Shown: one piece after another, positions 7,821 to 31,900 of the stretch
How positions within the stretch are numbered: the stretch's first letter is position 1
How the letters are laid out: every line of letters begins with the position of its first letter
DNA from: Ignavibacteriota bacterium
Lineage (GTDB): Bacteria; Bacteroidota; Ignavibacteria; UBA10030; UBA6906
Length of the DNA: 64,000 nucleotides
Reading direction: 5' to 3'
NCBI GenBank assembly: GCA_963849385.1
Contig: CAWKHH010000007.1
Location: forward strand, 549,000 to 612,999
The notes under the pieces: model-generated
Database searches by the model: none
The model's input: the letters and a program-made list of their open reading frames with translations, nothing else
Told to the model about the DNA's origin: nothing
Program-made: the position numbers and the translations under genes

Positions 7821-7849
7821 TTGCACATTCTGTACCAGTGCTCTATATT
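7821..7849 (+). promoter_or_regulatory. Sigma70-like promoter for the transglutaminase-like gene
   Basis: TTGCAC-17 nt-TATATT about 60 nt upstream of the ATG at 7911, which is preceded by GAGGAG. Confidence 0.45.
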
Positions 7850-7910
7850 GTGCATACCGGTTGCATCCGCCGCTCTTTTTCTCTTTCTGCTTCCCCGACG
7901 AGGAGATTAT

Positions 7911-9396
7911 ATGCGCGCCCATCGATCTGTTGCCGTCTGTCTTCTTATCACCCTGGCCCTGACCGTTCTCCTGCTCTCTTCCTGCGCCGCTCCGGGCGAG
8001 GAAAAGATCAACCGATTGGTTGCTGAAGGAAATTTCGCACAGGCTCAACGGGCAATCGAAGATCTTCTCGTGCGGGACACTTCCCTCACCGCATCCCAGC
8101 GGTTGCATTGGGAGTTTGAGATTGAACGGATGAACCGTATCAGACTCGACTTCCGCAAGACCGAACAGGATGTCAAGAACTTCGTCGCCAAACAGATGCC
8201 GTCGGTCACGCATGCAGACTACGAACGGTTTGAAGCGACACATGTCCTCGAGGCGATGACGATCGACGGGGAGAAGTTCTTTTTTAATAGTGCGGCGCGC
8301 AATCTTTTCAGAATCGATCCACAGTCACGCCAGGTGTGGAGAGACAGGCACAAGAGACGACGCGGAACCAACGGGACTGGCGAGCGAAGCCGGGCTCGAC
8401 CGGCATATCGCCCAGGTCATGGAAGCCGCGGTCAAGTCGGGGAAACCATACGTCAAGCCGGTTGTCCTGCATGTGACCCAAAGCATCACGGTGGGCGGTA
8501 ATGAGGTGCCTGAGGGAGAAGTGATCCGCTGTTGGCTTCCTTTCCCCCGCGAAATTGCGGGCCGCCAGGAGGCAATTCGCATTCTCTCCACCGACCCGCC
8601 GCGGTATCTTCTTGCGGACAACGGTGCATACCTGCAACGGACCATCTACTTCGAAAAACCTTCGGCAGGCAATGCGAAAACGAATTTCGTGGTTGAGTAT
8701 GAGTATACTTCCAACGGAGTGTACGTTCCCGTTGACCCGGCGCGGGTGAAGGTTCCCACCATCACGCCGGAGCTGGCCCCGTTCGTCCGGGAAGAAGCGC
8801 CGCACATTCTCTTTACGCCGGAGTTGAAGAGACTCTCGAGGGAGATCGTGGGAGAAGAGACAAATCCGTTGGTGATTGCGCGAAAGCTGTTCGCATGGGT
8901 GGATACGAATGTCACATGGGCAAGCGCGCGGGAGTATTCGACGGTGCCAAGCCTCAGCATGTATCCATACGAGAACCGGCACGGCGACTGCGGGATGCAA
9001 ACCCTGCTGTATATCACACTCTGCAGGCTAAACGGCATCCCGGCTCGCTGGCAGTCCGGATGGGAATTCCGGCCACCCGGCCAGAGCATGCACGACTGGG
9101 GGATGATCTACTTCGAACCGTACGGATGGGTGCCGATGGACGTCACATACGGCATGCGCGAAAGCCCGGATGACGCGATGAGATATTTCTACGTCAGCGG
9201 GATGGACAGCTACCGTCTGATATTCAACGATGCAATCGCGCAGCCGTTCTACCCGGCGAAGATCTTTCCGCGTTCAGAGACTGTGGATCTGCAGCGGGGT
9301 GAGGTTGAATGGAGGGGTGGAAATCTGTACTTCGACAAGTGGGAGTGGGATCTTGCGTGGAATGTGAAACATGCTGGCGGCCCCGGCTTACCCTGA
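7911..9396 (+). pseudogene. Transglutaminase-like cysteine protease family lipoprotein with an apparent +1 frameshift near 8340-8395
   Basis: Lipoprotein signal MRAHRSVAVCLLITLALTVLLLSSC. The core motif NRHGDCGMQTLLYITLCRLNGIPARWQSGWE lies in the second ORF (frame of 8290). Both ORFs look coding and are contiguous. Confidence 0.7.
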
Positions 9397-10968
9397 ACCG
9401 TAGGGTGACGCTTCCGGGCTCTGTGGTTGCAGCGCGGGAGCCCCGGTGCGCTGCTGGTTCTCCGTGGTCACGAAGACTCCCGCCTGCCCCGGTAACGGAC
9501 ACTTCGTTTCACAAATACCGCAGCCGATGCACAACTCCCGGAGAACGTACGGATACTTGACCATTTTCGTGTTGCCATCGCGCAGTCTCACTTCCTTCAA
9601 ATCGAATTTGATGGCTTTGTCCGGTGTGGGGCAGTGTTCTTCGCACACGATGCAGTCGGAATTCTGGGCGTAGGGAATGCAGAGGTTCTTGTCGAAGTGT
9701 GCCAGACCCATTGCCGTATGCTGCTTGACTTCGAGGGTCATCGGCACGATTGCATCTGTCGGACAGATCTGGCCGCACAGATTGCAGTTGTACTCGCAGT
9801 AGCCCTCACGCATCACCGCAACGGGCAGCCAGAGATCGAGCACAGTGGTCTGGATGCCATCCGGTTGCAGGCAAGCGCCGTTGGATGCACAGATCCGCAC
9901 ACACTCCTGGCACCGAATGCACTTGTCGGCGAATTGGTCCTCGGGCACCGCACCTGGAGGCCTTACCTGACGATTCTTCGCATCGCGGTTTTTCAAGCCG
10001 ACGCTGAGCATCCCGAGCGCAACTGCACCTCCGGCAACGGTCCGCACAAGCTGTCGTCGCGTGAAATCCACAGGCGTATGATACGGTTTCCAACGCCAGC
10101 GGTACGTAATGGCGTTGATTTTTGGCGGACAGACTGCGCCGCAACTGAAGCAGTCGATGCACTCGACCTTGCTCGTATGTTTTACATCGCCGGTGGGGAT
10201 CGCATTCATCTTGCATTCGGTCTGGCATTTGTTGCAGACCGGGCATGCCTCGCCGACGATTCGCTCGAACATCCGGAACTGCGCGAGAAAGCCGAGCCAC
10301 GCGCCCGCCGGACAAATGTTCCTGCACCAGAACCGGCGTGACAGCTTTTCCGCCCCCAGAATGGCACCGATGAAGAGTGCGATCCAGAAGAACTGCTGGG
10401 GACGAGCCTGCATTTCGGGCATAATAATCGCTTTGAACAGATCGTACACGTAGAACACAGGAGTCTCGAGAAATGGCACCTTCGTCGTCGCGAGAAGCGT
10501 CTGGTTGACGAAAAGCGTTCCCAGAGGATAGAAGACCACCGTCAGTGCGCGGTTAAATATCGAGAGGGGATCGAGGTATCCCCATACATGCACAGAGAAT
10601 ATGGCGAGGAGTATGCATGCGACCAGGAGGGCGAACTTGAAAAACCGGAGCTTCTCCCATTTCCCCGAGACTCGATTCGAAGGGGATGTGACGATCTTGC
10701 TTGCGGCGTCGATGGTTGTACCGAGCGGGCAGATCCAGCCGCAGAAGAAGCGTCCGAGAAACGGTGTGGCTGCGAGAATGACAAGTGCAGGCCAGAGAAC
10801 CCAGGACAGGGAGAGGTCCTGGATGAAATGAAAGAGGGGGATGAGTGGACTGAACCGGAGAAACAGGTCCGCCTCCATCGTTCCGGAATAGGGGTATCTT
10901 GCGATGAGAAACAGGATTACGAAGAATGCAAGAAAGCCGACCTGCACCACCCGCCGCAGTTTTTCCAT
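9388..10968 (-). CDS. NapH/MauN/NosH-family membrane-bound polyferredoxin (multiple 4Fe-4S clusters)
   Basis: N-terminal TM domain with CX3CP motifs (FFCGWICPLG, FWCRNICPAG), followed by at least five CxxCxxCxxxCP ferredoxin motifs. Confidence 0.8.
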   Translation of the reverse strand: MEKLRRVVQVGFLAFFVILFLIARYPYSGTMEADLFLRFSPLIPLFHFIQDLSLSWVLWPALVILAATPFLGRFFCGWICPLGTTIDAASKIVTSPSNRVSGKWEKLRFFKFALLVACILLAIFSVHVWGYLDPLSIFNRALTVVFYPLGTLFVNQTLLATTKVPFLETPVFYVYDLFKAIIMPEMQARPQQFFWIALFIGAILGAEKLSRRFWCRNICPAGAWLGFLAQFRMFERIVGEACPVCNKCQTECKMNAIPTGDVKHTSKVECIDCFSCGAVCPPKINAITYRWRWKPYHTPVDFTRRQLVRTVAGGAVALGMLSVGLKNRDAKNRQVRPPGAVPEDQFADKCIRCQECVRICASNGACLQPDGIQTTVLDLWLPVAVMREGYCEYNCNLCGQICPTDAIVPMTLEVKQHTAMGLAHFDKNLCIPYAQNSDCIVCEEHCPTPDKAIKFDLKEVRLRDGNTKMVKYPYVLRELCIGCGICETKCPLPGQAGVFVTTENQQRTGAPALQPQSPEASPYGSG

Positions 10969-10970
10969 AT

Positions 10971-11870
10971 TTACGACAGCCGCACCCGTTTGACATTCAG
11001 GGATTTCACGTCGAACTTGTTGAGTCCGCGCTTCAGCGCTTCACTGACCACGCCGACATCTTCCACCTTCAATCCAAAGAGTTCCAGCGCGAGATAATCG
11101 GCGCTGACGATGCACGGGCTCATGATCAGAGTGCGAAGTTGTTTGACATGCGCAAGATTGCCGCCGACCGGCCCATTGGCGGTCAGGATGCGATACGCAT
11201 CGATGATGGTCAATGTAGGGAGAATGGTTCTGTCGATATCCACAATCTTTTTGTTGAATTCGTTGTGGATGTCACCCCTGTTGCCCCCCAGGACACCCAT
11301 AAGGTTTTTCATGCCGAGAGTTACGCGGCTCAGACTATGATGCTTGGCGATCGGCACATTGATCACCTTATCCGCTTCGAGGTAGTCCTTATAGACCGAC
11401 CATTCCTTCACCGCTTCGCCATTGATTGCTTTGTCGACGAACCGGTTCTCGCGAATTTGCGTTACTTCGGCGCCTGCGGCCCTGGCTTTCTCTTCGATTT
11501 GCGAATTCGCGTAGCAGCGAAGTGGATTATTGCAGGTGCGATCGAACACTTTGACGGTTTTGGCACCGGCGTTGAGACATTCACGGATGACAGCGGCAAC
11601 CAGGTCTGGATTCGTGTTGGCAGCGAATTGCGGGGCGCGGTCCCATCCCATGTTTGGCTTAACGACCACAACATCCCCGCGCGAGATGAAACGGGTGATA
11701 CCGCCCATTTCTTTGAGCGCCGCAGCCAGGAGCTGTGCAGGCTCACCGTTTTCCACCCAAACCGCCTGGAGGGGCGGTTGCGCCGCGAAGAGAGGATCCA
11801 CACTTCGTGTCAATAGCGCTCCTCCGACAATACCGGCGCCTGTGCTCAAGAGAAAATCCCGTCTATTCAT
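10971..11870 (-). CDS. Tat-exported DUF362-like protein
   Basis: Twin-arginine signal MNRRDFLLSTGAGIVGGALL; VVVKPNMGW motif region; size and pattern are reminiscent of DUF362. Tentative family call. Confidence 0.65.
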   Translation of the reverse strand: MNRRDFLLSTGAGIVGGALLTRSVDPLFAAQPPLQAVWVENGEPAQLLAAALKEMGGITRFISRGDVVVVKPNMGWDRAPQFAANTNPDLVAAVIRECLNAGAKTVKVFDRTCNNPLRCYANSQIEEKARAAGAEVTQIRENRFVDKAINGEAVKEWSVYKDYLEADKVINVPIAKHHSLSRVTLGMKNLMGVLGGNRGDIHNEFNKKIVDIDRTILPTLTIIDAYRILTANGPVGGNLAHVKQLRTLIMSPCIVSADYLALELFGLKVEDVGVVSEALKRGLNKFDVKSLNVKRVRLS

Positions 11871-12006
11871 GTCCGCCTGCCTCTGTCACGTGTTCGAAAG
11901 TTACCCGTACAATCTGTCATCCCCTTATTGAGTATAGACAAAAACTTTCATAAAATACACCTTGCTCCAGATTTGTTCCCCCGATCATGTGATAAGGTGA
12001 AAGCGT

Positions 12007-13185
12007 ATGAGCCGTTTCTTCGAATCAGGCGATGTAACCAGAAGAGATTTCGTGAAAATCGCAGCGTTCGGTGGCGTCGCCGCAGCATTTGCTTCCCTGA
12101 CGGCACAGTCCGGAATGGGTCAAGACGTCCCTGCGATGCCCGCGACGAATGGAAAAGACGCATTGCGTTTTCCCCGCACCTCCCGTTCGTTACCCGGAGC
12201 ATTTCCCGGCCGCGTGGTACAATTGGTGAACGACAAAGCGATTGTTAATGATACGTTCGATGTCACGGCCCTGCACGTTATGCTCGCACAGGGCATGCTT
12301 GCCCTCACCGGTGCCCCGGGAGTGCCTGAGGCCTGGCGCATGCTCGTTCAACCGAACGAGATCGTTGGAATAAAGGTCAACCCGGTTGCCGGCAAGCTTC
12401 TTTCCACCAGTCCGGAACTCGTGCATGTCATCATCCGTCAACTGGAGGCAGCGGGTATCCCGAAGAAGAATATCGTGATCTGGGATCGGCGGGCATTTGA
12501 AATGACCGAAGTGGGGTTTACGGCCGAAGCATTTCCCGGTATCACGTTCGCAGGAACGGAATTGAAGGACGAGAAGGGATCCTTTTACGATGCCGAAGGA
12601 TTCCAGTACGGCGAGAAGATGATCGACAAGGATTGGCACTACTGGGCAGATGTCGAAGAAAAGTACGACGCGGAAACGCTTCCCTACATGATTAATGAGG
12701 GAACATATTCCTACTTCAGCCGGATTTGCACGAAAGATGTTGATTGCATAATCAATGTGCCCATTCTCAAGAATGCGGGCCCCACGGTTACGCTCTGCCT
12801 GAAGAATCTTGCCTTCGGGTCGATTACGAACACCGGGCGGCTGCACAAACAGTTATGGGCCGAAACGTGCGCGGAAGTGCCGGCATTCCCCCCGTTGAGA
12901 GACAAAGTAGTGCTGAATATCGTGGATGGCATCCGCGGGTGTTATCAGGGGGGACCTGCAGCTGATCAAAAGTTCATCTGTAATTTCAATACGCTCCTTG
13001 TCGGCACAGACCCGGTAGCGGTTGATCGTATCGGCTACGACATCATTCTTAAGAAGCGCCTCGAAGCGAAAATCCAAAAGGAAGAATCTGCAAAGGGGCG
13101 ACGCTTTATTGATCTGGCCGAGGGAATGAAGCTCGGCGTCGGGGATCTCTCGAAAATTGCGTTCGAGCGGATTCCCGTCAAATGA
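12007..13185 (+). CDS. Tat-exported DUF362-like protein (paralog, divergently oriented)
   Basis: Twin-arginine signal TRRDFVKIAAFGGVAAAFA; IVGIKVNPVAG region. Transcribed divergently from the other DUF362-like gene. Confidence 0.65.
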   Translation: MSRFFESGDVTRRDFVKIAAFGGVAAAFASLTAQSGMGQDVPAMPATNGKDALRFPRTSRSLPGAFPGRVVQLVNDKAIVNDTFDVTALHVMLAQGMLALTGAPGVPEAWRMLVQPNEIVGIKVNPVAGKLLSTSPELVHVIIRQLEAAGIPKKNIVIWDRRAFEMTEVGFTAEAFPGITFAGTELKDEKGSFYDAEGFQYGEKMIDKDWHYWADVEEKYDAETLPYMINEGTYSYFSRICTKDVDCIINVPILKNAGPTVTLCLKNLAFGSITNTGRLHKQLWAETCAEVPAFPPLRDKVVLNIVDGIRGCYQGGPAADQKFICNFNTLLVGTDPVAVDRIGYDIILKKRLEAKIQKEESAKGRRFIDLAEGMKLGVGDLSKIAFERIPVK

Positions 13186-14024
13186 AAACGCTTCTCACTC
13201 TCCTGTCGGGCTGTCTGGTTGTTGCTCTGGCGAGAACGCAAGTCATTGACACACCATACTTGAATTCAGGCGACATGCCCGGTTTGGTGGTGACGAGGAC
13301 CGGACATTTTGACGGGAAGGCCCTGTTTGGCTATATAGACGGTGGGGCCGAACTGTATCGCGAATACGGCTTCGTCGATCTGACGGTCCAGGAGATGAGG
13401 ATCGAAGATCACCAGATTCTCGTGGAACTCTTCCGCATGCGTGACCCACTGGGTGCGTTCGGTGTGTTCAGTGTCTCCCGGGGCGATTGCCGCGGTGAGG
13501 ATACCACTGCCCGATACTGGTGTAACACTTCCGGTCAGGTACTGGGTGCCGTCGGTCGCTACTTCTTCCGGGTGCAGAGGATTACCGGCGGGTCAGATGC
13601 GATCGGGATTGCACGAGCGGTCGCAGTACGAGTGCTCCACCTCCTTCCGGATTCAGGAACCGTTGTCCTTCCCTGGATCGCCGGCCGTCCGGATCCTCAG
13701 GCCTGGCAGCGCACCGCGATACTGGTGTTTGGAGAGCTAGGATTGCAGAATGGATTTCCGGATTGGGTTGATCCGCTGGAGAGCGGCGGCTATCGCTCGA
13801 TCACCATTGTGCCATGGGTCATTGAGGGGAAGTCTGCAACCATTGGGTGGATCCACTGTGCCACGGCGCAGGCCGCTTCCACGCTTGCGGGTTTCATCGC
13901 CACCCACAGGAGGCCGGGGTGGAGGTACCTCCGATTGTGCGAAGGCACATCATTCCTCGTGATTGAAGCCGATCTCCCTGCAGAACGTCTTGCGAAATTC
14001 GCGGGGACATTGCTGAATCACTAG
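13182..14024 (+). CDS. Hypothetical lipoprotein
   Basis: ATGA overlap with the upstream gene. N-terminus MKTLLTLLSGCLVVALA contains a lipobox. No family recognised. Confidence 0.6.
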   Translation: MKTLLTLLSGCLVVALARTQVIDTPYLNSGDMPGLVVTRTGHFDGKALFGYIDGGAELYREYGFVDLTVQEMRIEDHQILVELFRMRDPLGAFGVFSVSRGDCRGEDTTARYWCNTSGQVLGAVGRYFFRVQRITGGSDAIGIARAVAVRVLHLLPDSGTVVLPWIAGRPDPQAWQRTAILVFGELGLQNGFPDWVDPLESGGYRSITIVPWVIEGKSATIGWIHCATAQAASTLAGFIATHRRPGWRYLRLCEGTSFLVIEADLPAERLAKFAGTLLNH

Positions 14025-17935: not shown

Positions 17936-18199
17936 ATGGCGATTGAAAAACGAACCAAAGTCACCGGCTCGGTGGTGATCACCGTGGAACGGTGCAAGGG
18001 CTGCGGTTTCTGCGTCGAATTCTGTCCTTCAAAGGCGCTGCAGCTCTCCGATCAATACAACGCAAAAGGATACCACCCGCCGGTGCTCGTGTCTCAGGAT
18101 CTCTGCAACGGGTGCAACATGTGCGGTTTGCTGTGTCCCGACTTTGCGATTTACGGGTTCATCCGGAAGAAGAAATCAACCAAGGGAGCTGACGCGTGA
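17936..18199 (+). CDS. korD: 2-oxoacid:ferredoxin oxidoreductase delta subunit (2x[4Fe-4S] ferredoxin)
   Basis: CKGCGFCVEFCP and CNGCNMCGLLCP motifs; 87 aa; immediately upstream of the alpha subunit. Confidence 0.85.
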   Translation: MAIEKRTKVTGSVVITVERCKGCGFCVEFCPSKALQLSDQYNAKGYHPPVLVSQDLCNGCNMCGLLCPDFAIYGFIRKKKSTKGADA

Positions 18200-19359
18200 A
18201 AGCTGATCCAGCCGGCGTGCTTACCGGTGCGCATTTCATTGACGGCGACCACGCCTGTTGCGAGGGGGCAATTGCAGCAGGATGTCGGTTTGTCGCGGGG
18301 TATCCGATCACGCCGTCGACAGAAGTCGTTGAACGTATCGCCGAGAGGTTCCCGCTTGTTGGCGGTGTGTTCATCCAGATGGAGGACGAGATCGCTTCGT
18401 CCATTGCGATACAGGGCGCGGTATGGGCTGGAAAGAAAGCGATGACGGTGACTTCGGGGCCGGGCTTCTCGCTGATGATGGAACACATCGGTTTTGCAGC
18501 GATGACCGAAACTCCCTGTGTGTTTGTGGATGTGCAGCGGGCCGGGCCGTCCACCGGGCTGCCGACGCAACCCGCGCAGGGGGACATGATGCAGGCGCGG
18601 TGGGGGTCTCACGGCGATTATCGGGTGATTGCCCTTTCGCCAAATTCACCGCAGGAGTGTTTCGATCTGGCGATCAAGGCATTCAATCTCTCCGAAACCT
18701 ACCGTGTCCCCGTCATTTTGATGATGGATGAATGCGTCGGACATATGACCGAACGGGTGGTGATCCCTCCGGCGGAGGACATCGAGATTGTTTCTCGCCG
18801 GTGGTACCGGGGAGCTGTGGACGCCTATGAACCGTTCCGTGCGGGCGGCGATATGGTGCCGCCCATGGTGCGAGCAGGGGATGGATACAGGATCCATGTC
18901 ACCGGACTCACGCACGATGAACACGGCTACCCTGCGATGACCGTTGCTGCACAGGAACGCCTTGTGCGCCGGTTGAACGACAAGATTCGCCTGAACACGG
19001 ATGCCATTGCCGCCTATGATGAAGACCAGGTCGATGGAGCCGACATTGTTGTGGTGACGTACGGCATCACTTCGCGCACCGCCCTCCCCGCAATCGAGCA
19101 GGCGCGCAGCGAAGGAATAAAGGTCGGGCATCTTCGGCTTGTTGTGGTGTGGCCCTTCCCGGAGAAGCGGATCCGCGCGCTCGCACAACAGGTCCGTGCG
19201 ATCGTCGTGCCGGAACTCAATCTGGGGCAGGTCGTGCTTGAGGTGGAACGGTGCGTGTATGGCGCTGTACCGGTCACACTTGTCGGTCATACCGGCGGCA
19301 CCGTCCATCAACCTGTGGAGATTTACGACGCAATCATCAACAGCGTGAAAGGGGCGTGA
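18196..19359 (+). CDS. korA: 2-oxoacid:ferredoxin oxidoreductase alpha subunit
   Basis: ACCEGAIAAGCRFVAGYPITPSTEV...GGVFIQMEDEIAS, a typical KorA/PorA N-terminal domain. Confidence 0.9.
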   Translation: MKADPAGVLTGAHFIDGDHACCEGAIAAGCRFVAGYPITPSTEVVERIAERFPLVGGVFIQMEDEIASSIAIQGAVWAGKKAMTVTSGPGFSLMMEHIGFAAMTETPCVFVDVQRAGPSTGLPTQPAQGDMMQARWGSHGDYRVIALSPNSPQECFDLAIKAFNLSETYRVPVILMMDECVGHMTERVVIPPAEDIEIVSRRWYRGAVDAYEPFRAGGDMVPPMVRAGDGYRIHVTGLTHDEHGYPAMTVAAQERLVRRLNDKIRLNTDAIAAYDEDQVDGADIVVVTYGITSRTALPAIEQARSEGIKVGHLRLVVVWPFPEKRIRALAQQVRAIVVPELNLGQVVLEVERCVYGAVPVTLVGHTGGTVHQPVEIYDAIINSVKGA

Positions 19360-19362
19360 GGC

Positions 19363-20247
19363 ATGCCGGAGGAACTGTACGAGTTGGAAGCGGAGATGCC
19401 CTCCAACACTGTGGAGGAGTTTCTGCGGATGGACCGGATGCCGCATATCTGGTGCCCTGGATGCGGCATCGGCACAACGGTAAACTGCTTTGCGCATGCG
19501 CTGGAATCCAGCGGCCTGGATCTGACAAAGGTATCGATCGTCTCGGGGATCGGATGTACCGGTCGCGTGGCCGGATATCTGAACCTCGATTCCTTTCACA
19601 CGACGCACGGCCGGGCAATACCGTTTGCCACGGGGCTGAAGCTCGCGAACCCTTTGCTTAAGGTGGTGGTATACAGCGGTGATGGAGACTTGAGCGCAAT
19701 TGGCGGCAACCACTTCATCCATGCAGCCCGGCGCAATGTCGACATGACCGTCATCCTCATCAACAATAGCACGTACGGCATGACCGGGGGGCAGGTGGCG
19801 CCAACCACACCCATGAGTGCAGTGGCATCAACGACGCCGTACGGCAACTTTGAATCGGCATTCAACCTCCCCGCGCTCGCGGCTTCGTGCGGGGCGGTCT
19901 ATGTGGCGCGCTGGACCGCATTCCATGTCCGCCATACAACCAAGGCTATCAGAGAGGCCCTGGCAAAGAAGGGATTTTCGTTTGTCGAAATTCTGGCTCC
20001 GTGTCCGACGCTGTACAGCCGGCGCAACAAACTGGGGGACGGTTTGGCGCAAATGGTCTACTATCAACAGAACAGCGAGATCCGCAACGGCGCCGACACC
20101 AAAGATGTTGCGCTGGATTTCCAGGGGAAAATCATCGTGGGGAAATTTGTCGACCGCGAGCGCCAGACGTACAATGATGCGATGGTGGAGTACTATCTGC
20201 AGCATCTGGGCGACCGCTACGTGCCTCCAACGCTGACAGGAGCATGA
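19363..20247 (+). CDS. korB: 2-oxoacid:ferredoxin oxidoreductase beta subunit (TPP-binding)
   Basis: WCPGCGIG...GIGCTGRV...VVYSGDGD, a TPP-binding beta-subunit signature. Confidence 0.9.
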   Translation: MPEELYELEAEMPSNTVEEFLRMDRMPHIWCPGCGIGTTVNCFAHALESSGLDLTKVSIVSGIGCTGRVAGYLNLDSFHTTHGRAIPFATGLKLANPLLKVVVYSGDGDLSAIGGNHFIHAARRNVDMTVILINNSTYGMTGGQVAPTTPMSAVASTTPYGNFESAFNLPALAASCGAVYVARWTAFHVRHTTKAIREALAKKGFSFVEILAPCPTLYSRRNKLGDGLAQMVYYQQNSEIRNGADTKDVALDFQGKIIVGKFVDRERQTYNDAMVEYYLQHLGDRYVPPTLTGA

Positions 20248-20250
20248 CAC

Positions 20251-20817
20251 ATGGCAAGAACCGAAATAAAAATCGGTGGATTTGGCGGACAGGGCGTGAT
20301 CCTGAGCGGGTACATCATCGGCAGGGCGGCGGCAATCTATGATAACAAGTTCGCGACGATGATCCAGGCATTCGGACCTGAGGCGCGCGGTAGTGCGTGC
20401 AGCGCTCAGGTGATTGTCGATACCATCCCGATCGCCTACCCCTACATCACCTCACCCGAAGTGATGATCGTGATGTCACAGGAAGCGTACGCCAAATTCG
20501 TCCCGGAACTGAGTCACGCCGGTACGTTGATCACGGAAGAAGAACTTGTGACGGTCCGGAATCTCCGCAAGGACATCCGGCACCTCTCCGTCCCTGCGAC
20601 GCGATTCGCGGAAGAGCTGGGTACCCGGCTGGTGCTGAATATCGTGATGATGGGATTCTTTGCGGCAGTGACCGGGATCGCCGGAAAGGAGGCAATGCGC
20701 AAAGCTGTAAAGATGTCTGTCCCGAAAGGAACCGAGGATGTGAACCTGAAGGCCTTTGATCGGGGGTGGGAGTACGGTGAGCGACCCATAGACGTCCCGG
20801 TGAATGCCGCGCGTTGA
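20251..20817 (+). CDS. korC: 2-oxoacid:ferredoxin oxidoreductase gamma subunit
   Basis: IKIGGFGGQGVILSGYIIGRAA, the gamma-subunit GxGGQG motif. Confidence 0.85.
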   Translation: MARTEIKIGGFGGQGVILSGYIIGRAAAIYDNKFATMIQAFGPEARGSACSAQVIVDTIPIAYPYITSPEVMIVMSQEAYAKFVPELSHAGTLITEEELVTVRNLRKDIRHLSVPATRFAEELGTRLVLNIVMMGFFAAVTGIAGKEAMRKAVKMSVPKGTEDVNLKAFDRGWEYGERPIDVPVNAAR

Positions 20818-22946: not shown

Positions 22947-25900
22947 ATGAGAAAGCTTTCGACAATTCTCTTTGCCAGTGTTTTGCTCACATGTGGCCTG
23001 GCCGAAGGGATATATGCGCAAGCGACCCGGTTGGTGCTTCGCACCGGCGCGGGAGACTCGACGGTGACATTGACCGCCTCCCAGTCACAGAATCTCCTTA
23101 TTACCGCCAGGACCGCAGGAGGTGTGATTGATACCACCTACGATGGTCCCAAAAACCTGACATTTTCCGGAGCCAATTCATCCATCAGCCCAGCAGTGGC
23201 ACCTACGGTGGAAGACAACGCTGGTGTGCCCCAGGCATTTGCCACCTCGACGACGATTCAGTTCACCAATGGTGTCGCATCTGTGACGGGTGGGAACAAT
23301 GGCGTCATGCGTCTGTACCGGGCCGAGACTGTTAATATTTCAGCCTCGGATGGATCAATCGGCACCGGTACCGGGACCGATCGATTGCTGGCCACCGTAA
23401 ACCCATCGACGCTGGGAAAATTTGCCTGGAGTCTGACCTCCCCGCAAAGGAATGGGACAAGTTTCACAGGGACAAACACGCTGACCGCGCAGGACGATTG
23501 GGGAAATACCGTTACTTCATACAATGCCAATTCTCCCTCATCGAACAACGTTACTATCACGACCTCGCTGAACGGTGCGATCACCGGCCTTGGGGCCTCC
23601 AACAACAACGTGTTGAATCAAGCGGGCGATTTTGTCTCCGGTGTGGCGAATTTGAGCACACAACTGATGATATACACCGGAGTCGGAGGATCGGGGACAT
23701 TCACGGCGACGGGCGGCGGTAAGACAGGAACTTCCTCATCGGTTCAGATCACCGCGGCAGCTGCCACGCATCTAGTGCTCAGAACCGCTATCGGAGATTC
23801 TGTCATCAATGTTCAGGCCGGCACTACTCAAAACCTGAAGATTACGGCGAAAGATGCGAACGGGAACACCGATCTTACGTACACCGGCACAAAAAGCCTG
23901 ACCTTTTCCGGGGCAAATTCCTCGCCAAGTCCTGTGACCGCCCCGACCGTTTCAAACGCCGGCGGCGGTGCTGTGAATTTCGGAACGGCCACTCTCATCT
24001 CGTTCTCGAACGGCGAGGCGACGGCCAGTGGTAGTAGCAACGGAGTCATGCTCTTGTACGGTGTCCAGACGACAGCTACCATCTCGGTGACCGACCAGTC
24101 CATCAGCTCGACCGGAAATAATGCCCTCACCGCGACAGTCTCGGCAGGGGCGCTCGGCAAGTTTACCTGGAGCTTGACTTCTCCCCAAACAAACGGAGTG
24201 GCTTTCACGGGAACCGGCACCCTGACGGCTCAGGATTTTTGGGGGAACACACACATCTCCTTCGACGCTTCAGTCACGCCTGTCACAATGACCAGTTCGT
24301 TGAGCGGGACAATTACCGGGCTGGGTTCAGGTGTTAACAACATCCTCAATAGGAACACAGACTTCTCCTCCGGTATCGCGACGCTAGCCGGAAAGATGAT
24401 CTACACCGGCGCATCCGGTTCCGGTACATTCACTGCAACGGGTGGGGGGAAAAGCGGCACATCGTCAAGCATCCAGATCAACGCCGGTGCGGCGACACGA
24501 CTGATTGTCCGGACGACGGCAGGGGACTCAGTCATATCGATTGGTGCAGGAGTCGCTCAGGGGCTCAAGATCACCGCGCGTGATGCAGCCGGCAACATCG
24601 CAACCGGGTATACCGGCTCAAAGACACTCTACTTTTTCGGGGCCAATGTATCCCCCGCTCCGGAGAGCACGAATCCCACCGTCGTTGACAATGCCGGGAC
24701 GCCGAGGGATTTCTCGGCATCGCCGAACACACCAATCACATTTTCGTCGGGTGTTGCCACGATCAGCGGGGGGAACAACGGCATGATGCGGCTCCAAAGG
24801 GTGGAGACCGCTTCAGTTGGTGCAAGCGATGGTTCCATAACCGCATCATCAGCGGATCAGTTGACCGCAACTGTAACACCTGCCGGCCTCAAGAGATTTT
24901 CTGTCGTGTTGACGAGCTCTCAGATCAACAGAACTCCGTTCACCGGCGTCAACACGGTTACAGCAATCGATAGTTTTGGCAACGTTGCCACGAATTTCAA
25001 CGCTTCGACGAACAACGTCACCGTGACTCCTGTGGGTTTGGCAGGAACAATCAGCGGTCTCGGTTCAGGAGGGAGCAACCTCCTCAATCAATCCGGTGAT
25101 TTCGCTCTTGGAATTGCGAACGTCACGGGAAAAATGAAGTTTACCGGCACCGTCGGAACGGGGACATTCACGGCGACATCGTTGACGGGGAGAACCGGGA
25201 CGTCTGGCAACGTGACGATCAACGTTGGAAGCACGTCACGATTTGCGATTTCGGGGAATCTCAATCAGCAGGCAGGCTCCGGCCAGAGCCTCACGATTAC
25301 GGCAATGGACAGCTCAGGGAACACCGCAACGGGTTACGCTGGCGACAAGACGGTGCGGTTCAGTGGATCCGGACCGTCGTCAAATCCTGTGACGTACCCG
25401 ACGGTGTCGGACAAGGATGGGTTTGCCATTCAGTTCGGGGCCCAGCTGAACATTACGTTCACCGCGGGTATTGCCCAGGTTTCAGGCGGCTCCAATGGCG
25501 TAATGCGGCTGTACCGTGCCGGCAAAGACACTGTAGCCGTTTCTACGACGGATGGTACCGTCAGTTCCGGGTCGGGCGATCGTCTGATCCTCACGGTTAC
25601 CGAAGACGCATTACAGAAGTTTGTGTTCACACTCGCTTCTCCGCAACAGAGCGGTATCGCCTTCACAGGCACCAATACTCTGGTAGCGCAGGACAGCTAC
25701 GGGAACACCGTGACCGGTTTTAGCGCGGCATCAGATAACGTGACTGTCAGCGCAAATTCTCCGCTTTCGGGTACGATATCCGGACTGGGTTCCGGATCCA
25801 ACAATCTCCTCAACCAGGCTTCTGATTTTTCTGTGGGGGTGGCAAACCTCACCGGGAAAATAGTGTTTACCGGCGCGACCGGCAGCGCTCCATTTACCGC

Positions 25901-28900
25901 TTTCTCATCCACAAGCAAGGTTGGAACATCCGGGACTGTGCAGATTGTTGCGGGCGGGGCTACACGCCTGGTGATCAACGGACTTGCCTCCATGTCTGCC
26001 GGCAGCGCGCAAAACCTCACGATAACAGCCAAGGATGCCTCCGGCAATACTGTCTCGACCTATACAGGGTCGAAGAGTCTGACATTCTCCGGCGCAGATT
26101 CCTCAATAAGCGGATCAGCACCGACCGTCAATAGTTCATCGGGTACTGCGATCGCGTTCGGCGTTGCGACCCCGATTACGTTCACCAACGGCATTGCCTC
26201 GGTGGCAGGCAGCAATAATGGCGTGCTCAGGTTGTACCGCGCCCAAACTGCGATTGTTTCAGCGACTGACCAGACAATCAGTTCGAGTGGTGCGGATCGT
26301 CTCACGGTGACGGTCGCCCCGTCTTCTCTGGGTCGCTTTGCCTGGAGCCTGACGTCGCCCCAGACGAACGGAGTACCGTTTGCGGGGGCAAACGCACTGA
26401 CCGCTCAGGACGATTGGGGAAACACCATCGCCTCATTCGATGCTTCCGCCGCTCCCGTCACGATTACCACATCGCTGGCTGGAGTGGTCAGCGGTCTCGG
26501 CTCGGGCACCAACAACGTGTTAAACCGGGCGGGTGATTTCGTGTCGGGAGTTGCGAACCTCACCACTCTCGGGATGAAGTACACCGGCGCCATCGGAACG
26601 GGTACCTTCACAGCGACAGGCGGAGGGAAGACGGGGATCTCCCCGAGCATCCTCGTTTCTGCCGGCTCTGCAAGCCGATTGGTCGTACGTGCTTCAACGG
26701 GCGATTCAGTTATCACGATGATAGCCGGCGCAGTGAAGAACCTCACGATTACAGCCAAGGATGCGTCAGGCAATACAGTGACCACCTATGCCGGTGCGAA
26801 GACTCTGACATTTTCCGGGGCTGATTCTTCACTGAATCCTGCGACATCGCCAACGGTAAGCAACAGCGGCGGAACCGCAACTGCTTTTGGTGCCGGCACG
26901 GTACTCACATTTACCAATGGCATCGCAACGGTTACCGGAAGCAGCAATGGCGTCATGAAATTGTACCGGGCCCAGGCTGCAATGGTCTCTGTGACAGATG
27001 GCACGCAGACGTCGAGCGGAACGGACCGGTTGTCTGTGACGGTAAGTCCGGCGGCACTCGGGAAATTCGCATGGGTACTCTCTACTCCTCAGGTCAACGC
27101 CGTCGCTTTCACCGGTGCGAACACGTTGACTGCACAGGATGATTGGGGGAACCCGCTCACAGCCTATGATGCGTCGGCAAGCAATGTCACGGTCACCACA
27201 TCGTTGACCGGCACGGTCAGTGGTCTTGGGACAAGCAGTAATAATATCCTGAACAAGGCGAATGATTTCGTTGCGGGGGTGGCAAATCTCACCTCTATCG
27301 GGATGAAATATACAGGGAACATCGGGTCAGGGACCTTTACAGCGACATCGGCGGGAAAGGCCGGGACGTCACTTTCTGTCACTATCACACCGGGAGGGGC
27401 CGGCAAGCTCGTGATTACCGGATCAGGAACGCAAACTGCCGGCACACCCCAGAGTCTGACAATCACCGCCAAGGACGCCTCAGACAACCTGGTACTGACG
27501 TATACAGGGATTAAGACGCTGACGTTTACAGGGGCCAATCCTTCCACGAGTCCTTTGACGCAACCCTCGGTGACGGACAACGCGGGAGTTGCTGTGTCGT
27601 TCGGCTCGGCGACATCTATTCTTTTCACTAACGGCGTGGCCACCGTTAGCGCGGGGTCGAATGGCGCGATGAAGCTGTACAAAGCAGAGACCGCAACGAT
27701 TGCAGTCTCCGATGGAGCAATCGGTTCCACCGGAGCGGACCGGCTGACTGTTGCCGTTGCCCCGGCGGCTCTTGGCAAATTCGCGTGGGTACTCACCAGT
27801 CCTCAAATCAATGGTGTACCGTGGACAGGCACGAATACGCTTACGGCGCAAGACGATTGGGGCAACTCTGTTCCGACATTTGATGCGGCGACGAACAACG
27901 TCACACTGACGACAAGCCTTTCGGCGTCTCCGTCCGCGATCAGCGGACTTGGGACTCTCGGGAACAACGTGCTGAATCAATCGCCGAATTTTGTTCTCGG
28001 CGTGGCGAACCTGACCGGCCTCGGAATGAAATACACGGGCCTGGCGGGAACGGGGACCTTTACGGCAACCTCTACTGTTGGATCAAAATCCGGAACTTCT
28101 GACTCCACCACGGTGAACAATTCCGTCCCGACGTTCACAAGTATTGTGCCTTCAGAAGGAAGCCGGTCACAAGTTGTCCCCGTGACCGTTGCCGGCACCA
28201 ACTTCCTTCCGGGGGTGACTGTTCTCAATTTTGGCCAGGACTTCACGATCGATTCACTTCGGGTCGAGTCGACCACGCGCATCACGGCGCGTGTCCGTCC
28301 CGGACCGGCTGCAACGCTCGGACTGCGTGATGTGACTGTGTCCAATCCTGCACCCGGAGGGGGCTCCGCAACGTTGACCGGAGCTTTCCGAGTGAAGAAC
28401 CTCCCAAGTATCACGAGTCTCTCTCCCTCTGCTGGTGTCCGGGGTCAGACTTTGAATATGACGATTACCGGCACCAATTTTGCGACTGGGGTGAGCGATG
28501 TCGGGATCCAGGGATCAAGCATTACGCTGAATTCCACGGCTGTCACAAGTCCGACGACAATTGTTGCGAACATATCCATCAGTCTCAGCGCTCTTGATGG
28601 AGTGCGACTCTTTCATGTGACCAACTCGGGTGTCGAAGGAGGAATGTCGAACCTTACGGGGTTCACCGTCGGAAGCAATCCTCTTCCCGTTGTGACAAGC
28701 ATTTCACCGGCGCTGGTGACTCGCGGGCAGTCATTGGAACTGACCATAAAAGGGTCGAACTATTTCAATGGCATCACCTCTGTGAATCTGGGTCCGGGAA
28801 TTGTGATCACAGGAACAACTATTGACAGCACGACCCAGCTACGGGTGACGGCGACGGTTGCTGAGACTGCAGCGACCGGCCCACATCATGTCATTTTGAC

Positions 28901-31900
28901 AAACGCTCCTCCCGGCGGTGGACCCGACACCTTGAAGAATGGATTGACGATCAACAATCCTGCACCGACGTTGACAGGATTGTCGGTCCAGAATGCAACA
29001 CGGCTTCAGACGTTATTTATCACTCTTACCGGAACGCGATTCATCAACAATGTGACTACCGTCGTTCTGGGGAGCGGCATCACATTCGTTGCAACCGTTG
29101 CGGAGAGTCCCACGCAGTTGCGGGTGGGATTCACCGTCGATTCAAGTGCCGCGCTCGGACCAAGAAACGTCAAAGTGACCAACCCGGCACCGGGAGGAGG
29201 CAGTGACTCACTTGTCGGAGCGCTGACGATCTCCAATCCGATTCCGTCGATCACCACTATTTCGCCTGAGAGCACGATGGTTGGCGGCGGCGCACTGCAA
29301 ATGACTGTTACAGGGACCAATTTTGTTCCCGGTGCGGTCGTTCGCCTCGGTGGACGGGCGCTGACGTCGATAGTGGTGGACCGGACACGGATGACTGCGA
29401 CAGTGGCAGTGTCCGATATTGACACCGCCCGATCGTCGGTTGTGGATGTTAACGCACCGACGCCGGGTGGTGGCACATCGAACACCAAGAACTTCATCGT
29501 GCAGAATCCTGTGCCGACACTGGCAAGCCTTGCCCCGGCTTCGGGGAGCAGATTGCAAACCCTTGATGTCACCTTTACCGGCACGAAGTTTATTCCCGGC
29601 TTCACCCAGGTGGACTTCGGCGGTACGGATATCACTACGAACAGCATTACCGTCACCAGTTCGACACTGCTGACGGCGAACATCACCATCAGTGCCACCG
29701 CGACGATGGGTGCACGTGATATTTTTGTCAAGAACCCAACCCCTGGCGGCGGGAATTCGGAAAAACGGGTGTTCACTGTAGCGAACAATCCCGTCCCGAC
29801 CATTGCAGCGGTGACCCCAGACGGATGGAGTCGCTTGCGGACTCTGGATGTCGTGATCGACGGGACGAATTTTATCGCCGGCGTTACGTCAGCGGATTTT
29901 GGCGCGGGGATCACCGTCAACGGTCCCATCGCTGTCAATAGTTCCACCCGCTTGACGGCAGGTATCACCATCAATGTCACGGCTCCCACGGGCCCACGGT
30001 CCATCGCCGTCACCAACGCGCCTCCAGGAGGGGGGACCGCGACGCGGCTGAACGGGTTCACGGTGTTCAACCCGTCGCCCAAGCTCAACTATCTGGATCC
30101 CCCCAATGGCCAGCAATTGAAGACGCTCAATGTGGTGTTTTATGGTAACGGGTTTATCGATGGGGTCAGCTCGGTGAGCATGGGCACAGGTATTACGATC
30201 AACGAACAGATTGTTCTCAGTGATACGGTGATCACGGCAAATATTACCATCACGATCGGGGCGACAACCGGCCCGCGCAATGTGCTTGTCAACAACAGCG
30301 GACCAGGCGGCGGGACGTCGGAACTGACCAACGGATTTGTTGTTGGTAACAATCCTGCTCCGACGCTCGCGAGCATAGCTCCGGCAAGTGCAAAGCGCCT
30401 GGAAACACTGAATATCGTGTTCCGGGGGAGCAGCTTCGTGAGCGGTGTAACCACTGTGGATCTCGGTCCCGACATAGGCGTGAACGATGTCAATATTGAC
30501 AGTTCAGGCAAGCTGACCGCCAACATATCCGTGACGGGTAAGGCGGCAACCGGAGCGCGGACGGTTTTTGTGACGAATGCGCCCCCCGGCGGCGGCAAAG
30601 ACAGTCTGGTGGCGGCCTTCACAGTCACAAATCCGGCGCCGACGTTGACGAGCATCAATCCTGCGTTCGCCAACAGGTCCCAGACGTTGAATGTGGTTCT
30701 CCGCGGCACGAATTTCATCCCGGCAACAGTACCCTCATTCGGATCCGGTGGCGATGTTACTGTGAATTCTATCACGGTGGACAGTACGCGTCAGCTTACG
30801 GTGAACGTCACCGTTGGTTCAGCGGCGACGCTTGGCCTGCGCAACGTCACCGTAGCCAATCCGGTGCCGGGCGGTGGAACATCGGCGTCGGTCTCGTTCT
30901 CGGTGAATCTTGCGCCTCCTCCGACGCCGGCGTTGTCGTCGCCGCAAAATGGTGCGACGAATCTCCCCACGACGCTCGTCTTAAAGTGGGATACGGCGGC
31001 AGGTGCCACACAGTACCATCTCCAATTATCGACGAGTTCGCTTTTCCTTACGACGGTCGTCGATGATTCGTCGTTGACCGGCCCCTCCCGTCAGGTGGGA
31101 CCGTTGTCGAACAACCAGACATACTACTGGCGTGTGCGGGCGCGCAATGGTGGCGGAACAAGTTCATTCTCCTCCACCTGGAGTTTCACGCCGTTGTACC
31201 CGGATGTGTATCCGTTATCCAATTCGGTGCAGTTCCCCTCCTATGCCACTGCGGCAGAGTACAAGGTGAAAGACTATCGCATTGTCGGTCTCCCGGGAGC
31301 CGGCACAAATCCGCTCGGCGAATATATGACGGGAACGGCAGGAACGGACTGGCAGGCCTATACGGACAACGGCGCAGGGGCGAACTATTTCACCAAGTAC
31401 GACGGCACGTCCGCGTTCACGTTCTCCGCAGGAAAGGCGTACTGGCTCATCAAGAAGAATCCCTGGACGGTGAGTACGTCGGTGAGCACCGCGCCCCTCG
31501 ATACGTCGGTATCGGTTCGCATTTCGTTGCAGAACGGCTGGAATCTGATCACCAACCCATTCCTTCACTCCGTACCGTGGTCGAGCATACAGTTGGCCAA
31601 TAGCCCTGCTGCCCGCTCGCCCATCTGGTTATATGACGGGGTGAACGGGTTTTCGCAGGCTACCACGCTCGAGCCGTATGTGGGATACTATTTTTTCAAT
31701 AGTGACAACGTTCCGTATATCCGGATTCCCTACGGGGCTTCCTCGGGAGTCTGGATGAAGGCGGATTCGTCGGTACAGGATGGCTGGACGGTGACGGTCG
31801 CTGCAAAGACGGGCGAGTATACGGACCGCAGCCTGATGTTCGGTGTTCGTGAAGATGCTTCTGAAGGGCTTGACCGTTATGACTACAGGAAGCCGCGTAC

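Follow-up and report, generated by a model that had tools for sequence, protein, structure and literature searches.

Polyferredoxins that unite a NapH-like membrane part and a NapG-like cluster domain in a single polypeptide were described by Tooke et al. in 2017 (eLife; PMC5449189), with Q1NSB0, a polytopic protein of delta proteobacterium MLMS-1, as the example. Reporter fusions revealed that Sec inserts the first four helices of Q1NSB0, after which Tat inserts the fifth; the study covers membrane insertion, notes homologues in Chloroflexi, Nitrospirae and archaea, and names no function, partner or gene context for these proteins (PMC5449189). A protein of this type, here called PFD, is encoded in a stretch of 64,000 nucleotides (nt) of contig CAWKHH010000007.1 from an Ignavibacteriota bacterium, referred to below as the window, whose positions serve as coordinates throughout. 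What is already known of PFD is the NapH-NapG fusion architecture (PMC5449189); what is new is its linkage to a second gene, which encodes a protein of the DUF362 family that we call DUF362-A. DUF362-A followed by PFD is a near-obligate two-gene unit, and we propose, with a probability of roughly 0.6, that this two-gene operon is the core of a conserved periplasmic electron-transfer module in which electrons would flow from PFD to DUF362-A.

NapG is a Tat-exported periplasmic protein, and NapGH and NosGH, as found in Escherichia coli and Wolinella succinogenes, are conduits for electrons between the quinone pool and an enzyme of the periplasm. Like these systems, PFD combines a NapH-type membrane part, with CX3CP motifs and cytoplasmic [4Fe-4S] clusters, and a NapG-type part with four [4Fe-4S] clusters. 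Unlike them it is one polypeptide, napA, napB, napC and nosZ were not found near its gene, and its likely partner is a DUF362 protein, not a molybdo-, copper- or haem enzyme. NosR, NirI and PceC/RdhC also have a NapH-like core, CX3CP motifs and cytoplasmic [4Fe-4S] clusters, and serve a periplasmic Tat-exported enzyme, but, unlike PFD, they lack a NapG-like domain and have a periplasmic FMN-binding domain at the N-terminus. The arrangement, encoded by one or two genes, of a membrane electron-input protein with a Tat-exported cofactor enzyme of the periplasm is further seen in the widespread MsrPQ and the fused Sco3746, i.e. in split and fused dual Sec/Tat forms (PMC5449189), although the cofactors (haem b, molybdopterin) and folds of MsrPQ are unrelated and the analogy is one of logic only.

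A two-gene unit and its polyferredoxin

A first-pass annotation of this DNA, made from the letters alone, had described four open reading frames (ORFs) around a divergent gap, and an ORF check returned all of them at the same coordinates:

9388-10968, minus strand: PFD gene (polytopic polyferredoxin), an ORF of 526 aa, NapH-NapG fusion
10971-11870, minus strand: DUF362-A gene, an ORF of 299 aa with a Tat motif, whose predicted fold is LarA-like; it lies 2 nt upstream of the PFD gene
11871-12006, no strand: divergent intergenic gap of 136 bp
12007-13185, plus strand: DUF362-B gene, an ORF of 392 aa, a Tat-motif paralogue without an equivalent of H178
13182-14024, plus strand: DUF6599 gene, an ORF of 280 aa, predicted secreted, with a 4-nt overlap with DUF362-B

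The order of the first two genes had been misread, as the polyferredoxin was placed before the DUF362 gene; on the minus strand DUF362-A comes first and PFD second, 2 nt apart.

An alignment query for PFD, run on one genome per species, returned 80 loci from many phyla with 31-76% PFD identity, and the proteins of the window were searched by phmmer against all ORFs of these loci. Enough upstream DNA to judge was present in 73 of the 80, and 69 of these 73 have a DUF362-A orthologue in the locus, which lies directly upstream on the same strand in 60 and elsewhere in 9. The reverse scan, of metagenomes and with DUF362-A of a distant relative as query, gave 58 informative loci, of which 57 contain PFD (adjacent in 47). 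Pairing is thereby seen in 95-98% of about 130 informative loci and in at least 12 phyla, including Calditrichota, KSB1, Desulfobacterota, Nitrospirota, Acidobacteriota, Chloroflexota, Spirochaetota, Verrucomicrobiota, Elusimicrobiota, Fibrobacterota, Hydrogenedentota and Bacteroidota. The stop and start codons of the two genes often overlap or abut. Conservation of the polyferredoxin and DUF362 neighbourhood was a check that the first-pass annotation had itself proposed and, because it recurs across phyla, the gene arrangement is far beyond chance.

When the neighbouring ORFs of the 80 genome loci were clustered, no recurrent family emerged besides DUF6599 and a second DUF362, and no substrate-uptake or catabolic genes recurred beside the pair. 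Operon genes of nap, nos or mau were likewise not recurrent in these clustered loci, and none lies within 10 kb on either side in the window, where nrf and cbb3 genes were not found either. The view that no known reductase is encoded nearby and that DUF362 is the only candidate periplasmic partner was thus borne out by the neighbourhood comparison and, because no other gene recurs beside the pair, DUF362-A is likely to be the periplasmic partner of PFD.

Among the genomes with the pair are a complete Calditrichota genome and that of a cultured Parabacteroides distasonis (L176, 7001-9538; NZ_OY725750.1), where RefSeq gives the two products the merely generic names 'DUF362 domain-containing protein' and '4Fe-4S dicluster domain-containing protein' (WP_005857469.1, WP_121956785.1). 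Both CX3CP motifs are present in the P. distasonis PFD, as is an internal SRRTFL. P. distasonis is a human gut commensal. NZ_OY725750.1 is filed as a 168-kb 'plasmid' and, judging by its housekeeping neighbours (tgt, lptF/G, trkAG), may be a chromosome fragment.

Genes that are inserted between DUF362-A and PFD in some loci were considered as extra subunits and set aside, as they are mutually unrelated (e.g. toxin-antitoxin, radical SAM, signalling). Two metagenome loci, L120 (3712-5340) and L148 (1473-3044), share the same inserted ORF of about 525-540 aa (92% identical), which starts MKILLVYPxYPDTFWSFKYALKF and, by its N-terminus alone, resembles B12-binding radical SAM enzymes.

Pfam finds two Fer4_5 domains and dicluster domains in PFD. 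Among the NCBIfam models, those for NapH match residues 3-146 and those for NapG residues 303-500, with a weak NosR match at residues 193-283. Its parts map to the window as follows:

9469-9963, minus strand: PFD residues 336-500, NapG-like domain, predicted periplasmic, with four [4Fe-4S] motifs (C350, C391, C430, C480)
9991-10059, minus strand: PFD residues 304-326, internal twin-arginine R304 R305 and a fifth, moderately hydrophobic helix
10099-10968, minus strand: PFD residues 1-290, four-helix NapH-like membrane part with CX3CP at C76 and C215 and cytoplasmic CxxCxxCxxxC at C242 and C270

Helices 1-4 are predicted from hydropathy peaks at residues 7-25, 54-72, 110-128 and 192-210. The CX3CP motifs (C76-P81 and C215-P220) stand directly after helices 2 and 4, and the two CxxCxxCxxxC motifs lie at residues 242-280. 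By motif and hydropathy scan there are six ferredoxin-type Cys motifs, two on the predicted cytoplasmic and four on the predicted periplasmic side. The stretch round the twin-arginine reads FTRRQLVRTVAGGAVALGMLSVGLKNRDAKNRQVR, with the core FTRRQLV before the fifth helix, and the helix is followed by a basic stretch, KNRDAKNRQVR, which starts at K326 and ends at residue 336. The hydropathy of helix 5 is 1.67, compared to 2.2-2.4 for helices 1 and 3. Across 23 homologues the motif Cys residues and R305 do not vary, and R304 is kept in at least 90% of them; among the matches listed, PFD has at least 120 homologues of 482-547 aa and 60-92% identity.

On these features PFD reads as a NapH-NapG fusion with five transmembrane helices and an internal twin-arginine motif. 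The first-pass annotation correctly saw a 526-aa NapH-like polyferredoxin with CX3CP motifs and at least five ferredoxin-type Cys clusters, but took it for a lone NapH; the 'missing' NapG is fused within PFD, and the architecture itself is therefore already known (PMC5449189). The RR motif, the weak fifth helix and the positive charges after it match features that Tooke et al. tie to Sec-to-Tat handover, and the architecture of PFD is that of the dual Sec/Tat polytopic polyferredoxins (PMC5449189). PFD shares with Q1NSB0 the five helices, the NapH-like N-terminus, the RR before a weak fifth helix, the positive charges that follow and the NapG-like C-terminus (PMC5449189). Unlike Q1NSB0, which is described with seven clusters, three of them cytoplasmic, the PFD of the window has six ferredoxin-type motifs and two CX3CP; the Q1NSB0 paper makes no mention of a DUF362 linkage (PMC5449189). 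Since that family member needs both Sec and Tat for insertion, the NapG-like domain is placed outside the membrane, as shown for Q1NSB0 and, by analogy, probably so in the window.

The family models match PFD at scores far below their equivalog cut-offs. For the NapH equivalogs (NF007013, TIGR02163) the values are 56.6 bits vs a cut-off of 234 and 48 vs 213, and for the NapG equivalogs (NF007012, TIGR00397) 87.7 bits vs 269, with MauM/NapG at 63 vs 178.85.

DUF362-A, LarA and the lar genes

DUF362-A matches PF04015 with 163.6 bits (E 7.7e-48) and DUF362-B with 68.8 bits (E 8.8e-19), both against a cut-off of 24, and the two Tat-motif proteins are thus DUF362 members, as had been annotated. The following export signal is predicted for DUF362-A:

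11781-11870, minus strand: predicted Tat signal peptide of DUF362-A, N-terminus MNRRDFLL, about 30 residues

Of 75 DUF362-A orthologues, 67 carry an RR-x-F-L motif, and the others are truncated ORFs or RK/KR variants. The Pfam TAT_signal score of 16.6 is below the cut-off of 22.7, and the signal stretch is disordered in the AlphaFold2 (AF2) model. Ten positions (K71, N73, D110, K176, H178, K188, H202, D224, G233 and P234) are invariant in alignments of 31-70 orthologues and R198, D211, R227, D258 and Y120 nearly so. Binding of an Fe-S cluster by DUF362-A itself was ruled out, as there are zero invariant Cys. Because of its invariant polar residues and the lack of an invariant Cys, DUF362-A looks like an enzyme without an Fe-S cluster of its own.

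The AF2 model of DUF362-A has a predicted local distance difference test (pLDDT) score of 88.6. When it was compared with the PDB by Foldseek, LarA-like proteins took all of ranks 1-19, 18 of them characterised LarA-family enzymes and one an uncharacterised homologue (E 9e-7 to 3e-3, probability 0.99-1.0, query-normalised TM-score 0.37-0.52), and the modelled fold is that of the LarA hydride-transfer enzymes. Sequence searches of the PDB with both DUF362 proteins and a 31-sequence profile returned nothing meaningful, and there is no Lar_N/DUF2088 Pfam match to DUF362-A. The first-pass annotation had allowed that its Tat proteins might fall into a family unrelated to redox chemistry, or its polyferredoxin into CcoG/FixG with a cbb3 oxidase operon nearby. 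The former are genuine DUF362 proteins whose sole structural relatives are hydride-transfer LarA enzymes, and the latter matches NapG/NapH models, with no CcoG/FixG family among its 20 NCBIfam matches and no cbb3 genes nearby.

DUF362 and the DUF2088 domain of LarA belong to one Pfam clan, CL0471 (PMC11770544), and LarA proteins, which give a colinear alignment, are the sole convincing structural matches of the DUF362-A model. Unlike LarA, DUF362-A has about 265 residues in its mature form (vs about 424), is without the C-terminal domain that carries Q295 and K298, and has a Tat-type signal; it is also paired with an Fe-S electron conduit, and the window has no lar biosynthesis genes. The pairing with an Fe-S conduit implies net redox chemistry and not racemisation. 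No functional study of DUF362 (PF04015, IPR007160, COG2006) was found in the searchable literature.

Residue correspondence was sought in three hhalign runs of DUF362-A against LarA, one with a single LarA sequence and the others with profiles. The LarA sequence used is an exact match to the 5HUQ chain, and a LarA profile of nine sequences, from plasmid-borne larA genes, was built because the single-sequence hhalign was too weak. Consistently over the three runs H178 falls on LarA His174, K188 on Lys184 and D77 on Asp72, as does P80 on Pro76. H202 lies two residues off LarA His200 in the profile alignments and on the non-conserved His217 in the single-sequence run. In LarA, His174 is catalytic, Lys184 tethers the cofactor and His200 ligates Ni. 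H178, K188 and H202 may thus stand at or near the catalytic His, the tethering Lys and the Ni-ligand His, which is a lead and not proof. The substrate-carboxylate ligands Q295 and K298, which are invariant in the LarA alignment, have no DUF362-A counterpart.

Genes for cofactor synthesis were searched for in the loci by phmmer with Lactiplantibacillus plantarum LarB, LarC and LarE, with NCBIfam confirmation. About 160 related loci were covered, and in 2 of them such genes stand beside the pair; there LarE, LarB and LarC score above the NCBIfam cut-offs. In a Leptospira-like metagenome-assembled genome (L059; DYNZ01000019.1, 3178-8006), DUF362-A, PFD, larE, larB and larC follow on one strand and overlap or abut; the 4-nt overlap between the PFD stop and the larE start makes this look like one operon, and no larA is present within the 12.7-kb locus. 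In the Hydrogenedentes locus (L082), larC and larB lie 1.3 kb downstream on the opposite strand. A rough chance expectation is about 0.1 lar loci vs the 2 found, assuming one lar cluster in about 1/5 of genomes and about 1.6 Mb searched. None of larB, larC and larE occurs in the 64-kb window. The 80 metagenome loci closest to L059 (from a scan seeded with its DUF362) have no lar genes, so the linkage is sporadic, although suggestive.

Many genomes make the nickel-pincer cofactor and have no larA, for which reason users outside LarA are sought; which proteins these are is regarded in that field as an open question (PMC13524815). DUF362 is not mentioned in that paper, and no discussion of it in a nickel-pincer context was found in the searchable literature. 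A tentative idea, which we regard as unlikely on present evidence, is that DUF362 constitutes a second, much smaller branch of nickel-pincer (or related pyridinium-pincer) enzymes that, in contrast to the LarA racemases, would carry out net redox chemistry, with electrons from a hydride of the substrate going to [4Fe-4S] chains or coming from them. In this system the enzyme would receive its cofactor in the cytoplasm before export by Tat, and PFD would wire it to the quinone pool.

The DUF362-B/DUF6599 pair and the surrounding genes

DUF362-B aligns to the A-type profile with an hhalign probability of 98.9%, which marks it as a true paralogue. It keeps equivalents of K71, N73, D110, K176, K188, H202 and D224, and H178 is replaced by Ala. 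Its N-terminal Tat motif reads TRRDFVK; 8 of 11 B-type relatives match the motif as a regular expression, and a ninth has NRREF by eye.

The product of the following gene matches PF20244 (45 bits vs a cut-off of 27, E 1.2e-11), as do all 64 homologues. It had been annotated as a lipoprotein, which is not supported: of 36 homologues, just 8 possess the 'lipobox' LSGC (Cys11), the majority start with a plain signal peptide, and positions 15-18 of close relatives read A-x-A|Q, a site of signal-peptidase-I type that fits better. The DUF6599 protein is therefore probably not a lipoprotein and is predicted to be secreted. Its AF2 model (pLDDT 83.4) is a two-repeat alpha/beta structure with weak fold matches to the Treponema lipoprotein TP0453 and to RseB.

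The first-pass annotation had made both DUF362 proteins candidate partners of PFD, which DUF362-A probably is. DUF362-B and DUF6599 form a separate conserved pair, because DUF6599 lies directly downstream of a B-type DUF362 in four of four distant contexts, with no PFD within 6 kb. These contexts are L093, L094, L095 and a JGI contig, from Ignavibacteriales-like and other genomes, and their B-type DUF362 proteins have 386-394 aa. All four genes are co-located in seven loci (L039, L041, L044, L061, L065, L078 and L161) from Nitrospirota, Chloroflexota, Acidobacteriota and Fibrobacterota, in varying orders and sometimes in one operon with PFD, and a functional tie of DUF362-B/DUF6599 to the core pair appears likely, but looser.

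The divergent gap contains CACGTG and TTCGAA at 11887-11898, palindromes that had been put forward as a possible regulator site. This was rejected, as they are neither enriched (14 CACGTG in the window vs 24 +/- 5 expected) nor conserved, both being lost in a relative with 92-95% protein identity. A block of 35 nt at 11927-11961 (ATTGAGTATAGACAAAAACTTTCATAAAATACACC) is kept in the window, L002 and L004, down to a relative with 74% protein identity, in a spacer that otherwise diverges. A sigma-70-like TTGAGT-17-TAAAAT at 11928-11956, which is a match to consensus alone, overlaps it. The block is a candidate for a shared promoter or operator.

To the left of PFD lies a transglutaminase-like gene (7821-9396, plus strand), which is split over two reading frames and whose 3' end overlaps the convergent 3' end of PFD by 9 nt. 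The intact 492-aa orthologue in L002 matches about 7911-8390 (residues 1-160) in one frame and about 8353-9381 (residues 148-490) in another. The implied frameshift near 8353-8390 may be a sequencing error or the mark of a pseudogene. This gene was not retained as part of the system, as it recurs just in the closest relatives (L002-L004, L009) and not farther out. The same applies to the M14 peptidase and C45-like neighbours, which recur just in relatives with at least 92% identity (L002, L003), and to a racemase-like neighbour, which is annotated in L002 and L003 and in no more distant locus. Farther to the right, three consecutive ORFs at 18196-20817 (plus strand) correspond to the alpha, beta and gamma subunits of a 2-oxoacid:ferredoxin oxidoreductase (POR_N/PFOR_II, TPP_enzyme_C, POR); elsewhere, these genes show no linkage to the module. 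A single ORF of 3190 aa with a signal-peptide-like N-terminus occupies 22947-32519 (plus strand) and is followed by small ORFs and then an apparent polysaccharide-synthesis cluster at about 34-50 kb.

Proposed electron flow and its possible meaning

In the reading that we prefer, PFD would exchange electrons with the quinone pool in the manner of NapGH and NosGH, and its periplasmic cluster chain would relay them to DUF362-A, the putative catalytic subunit with a pocket of invariant Lys, His and Asp. DUF362-A would be exported folded because it would carry a cofactor loaded in the cytoplasm, possibly the nickel-pincer nucleotide or a pyridinium cofactor akin to it. A reductive direction, i.e. 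from quinol through PFD and DUF362-A to a small periplasmic substrate, is slightly preferred. DUF362-B and DUF6599 would constitute a second periplasmic pair, often in the operon of the core pair, and probably act as a variant catalytic or substrate-handling unit.

Several observations weigh against this proposal. Four of the 73 PFD loci (L025, L032, L045 and L070) have no DUF362 within 7 kb, and PFD can therefore exist without an adjacent partner. PFD scores far under the equivalog cut-offs for NapH and NapG, and its quinol oxidation is put forward by analogy. The sequence statistics of the LarA alignment are weak (hhalign probability 0.25-10%; best E = 0.003, at 10%), and DUF362-A is without the C-terminal substrate-binding domain of LarA, the confident alignment ending at LarA 191-206. 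The independent occurrence of DUF362-B/DUF6599 in all four distant contexts also loosens the tie of these two genes to PFD.

The alternatives differ in what they make of DUF362-A. It could be a periplasmic dehydrogenase in an oxidative module, with hydride from, for instance, a 2-hydroxy acid or a sugar going by way of PFD to quinone or to cytoplasmic clusters. LarA-type chemistry does start with substrate oxidation, in which hydride is passed to the cofactor (PMC11770544), DUF362-A retains residues equivalent to the catalytic His and to the Lys that tethers, and the cytoplasmic clusters of PFD have no assigned role. Set against this, NapGH and NosGH are quinol dehydrogenases that feed periplasmic reductases (PMC5449189), and the clustering of neighbours gave no recurrent uptake or catabolic genes; we consider an oxidative module rather doubtful. 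That DUF362-A has no catalytic role, and is instead a subunit of PFD with a structural or stabilising function or a factor for PFD assembly in the periplasm, the true electron partner of PFD, e.g. a cytochrome or reductase, being encoded elsewhere, seems improbable. No DUF362 substrate or cofactor is known, some PFD loci are without DUF362, and modules of the NapGH type often serve partners encoded elsewhere. However, it would be atypical for a scaffold to have about ten polar residues (K, N, D, K, H, K, H, D) that are invariant and align with the LarA active site, and most of the same residues are kept in the paralogue DUF362-B. Moreover, Fe-S insertion precedes Tat export, which leaves no obvious job for a periplasmic assembly factor.

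Least credible, and in our estimation very improbable, is a mere co-regulation of two independent periplasmic functions, in which DUF362-A, as a LarA-like racemase or epimerase of redox-neutral type, would exchange no electrons with PFD. The characterised LarA-like members of the clan are indeed all racemases or epimerases, whose reactions bring no net change of redox state (PMC11770544), but a linkage of 95-98% that extends over at least 12 phyla, with stop and start codons that often overlap or abut, is typical of subunits of one complex, and DUF362 domains often occur in proteins that also carry ferredoxin-type Fe-S-binding domains (PMC5742341).

If PFD does pass electrons to DUF362-A as we propose, the polyferredoxin type that served as the 2017 model for dual Sec/Tat insertion now has a specific partner to its name, DUF362-A, in a system that reaches hundreds of species and more than a dozen phyla, with a human gut commensal available in culture among them. 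As a large family of long standing, DUF362 has no assigned function, and its tie to an electron conduit, LarA-like fold and Lys/His pocket give it a testable job. Should the nickel-pincer link fail, the module would still be an undescribed and widespread periplasmic redox system. Should it prove true, DUF362-A would be the first periplasmic nickel-pincer enzyme and the first to be linked to a respiratory chain, and pincer chemistry would extend from racemisation to respiratory electron transfer.

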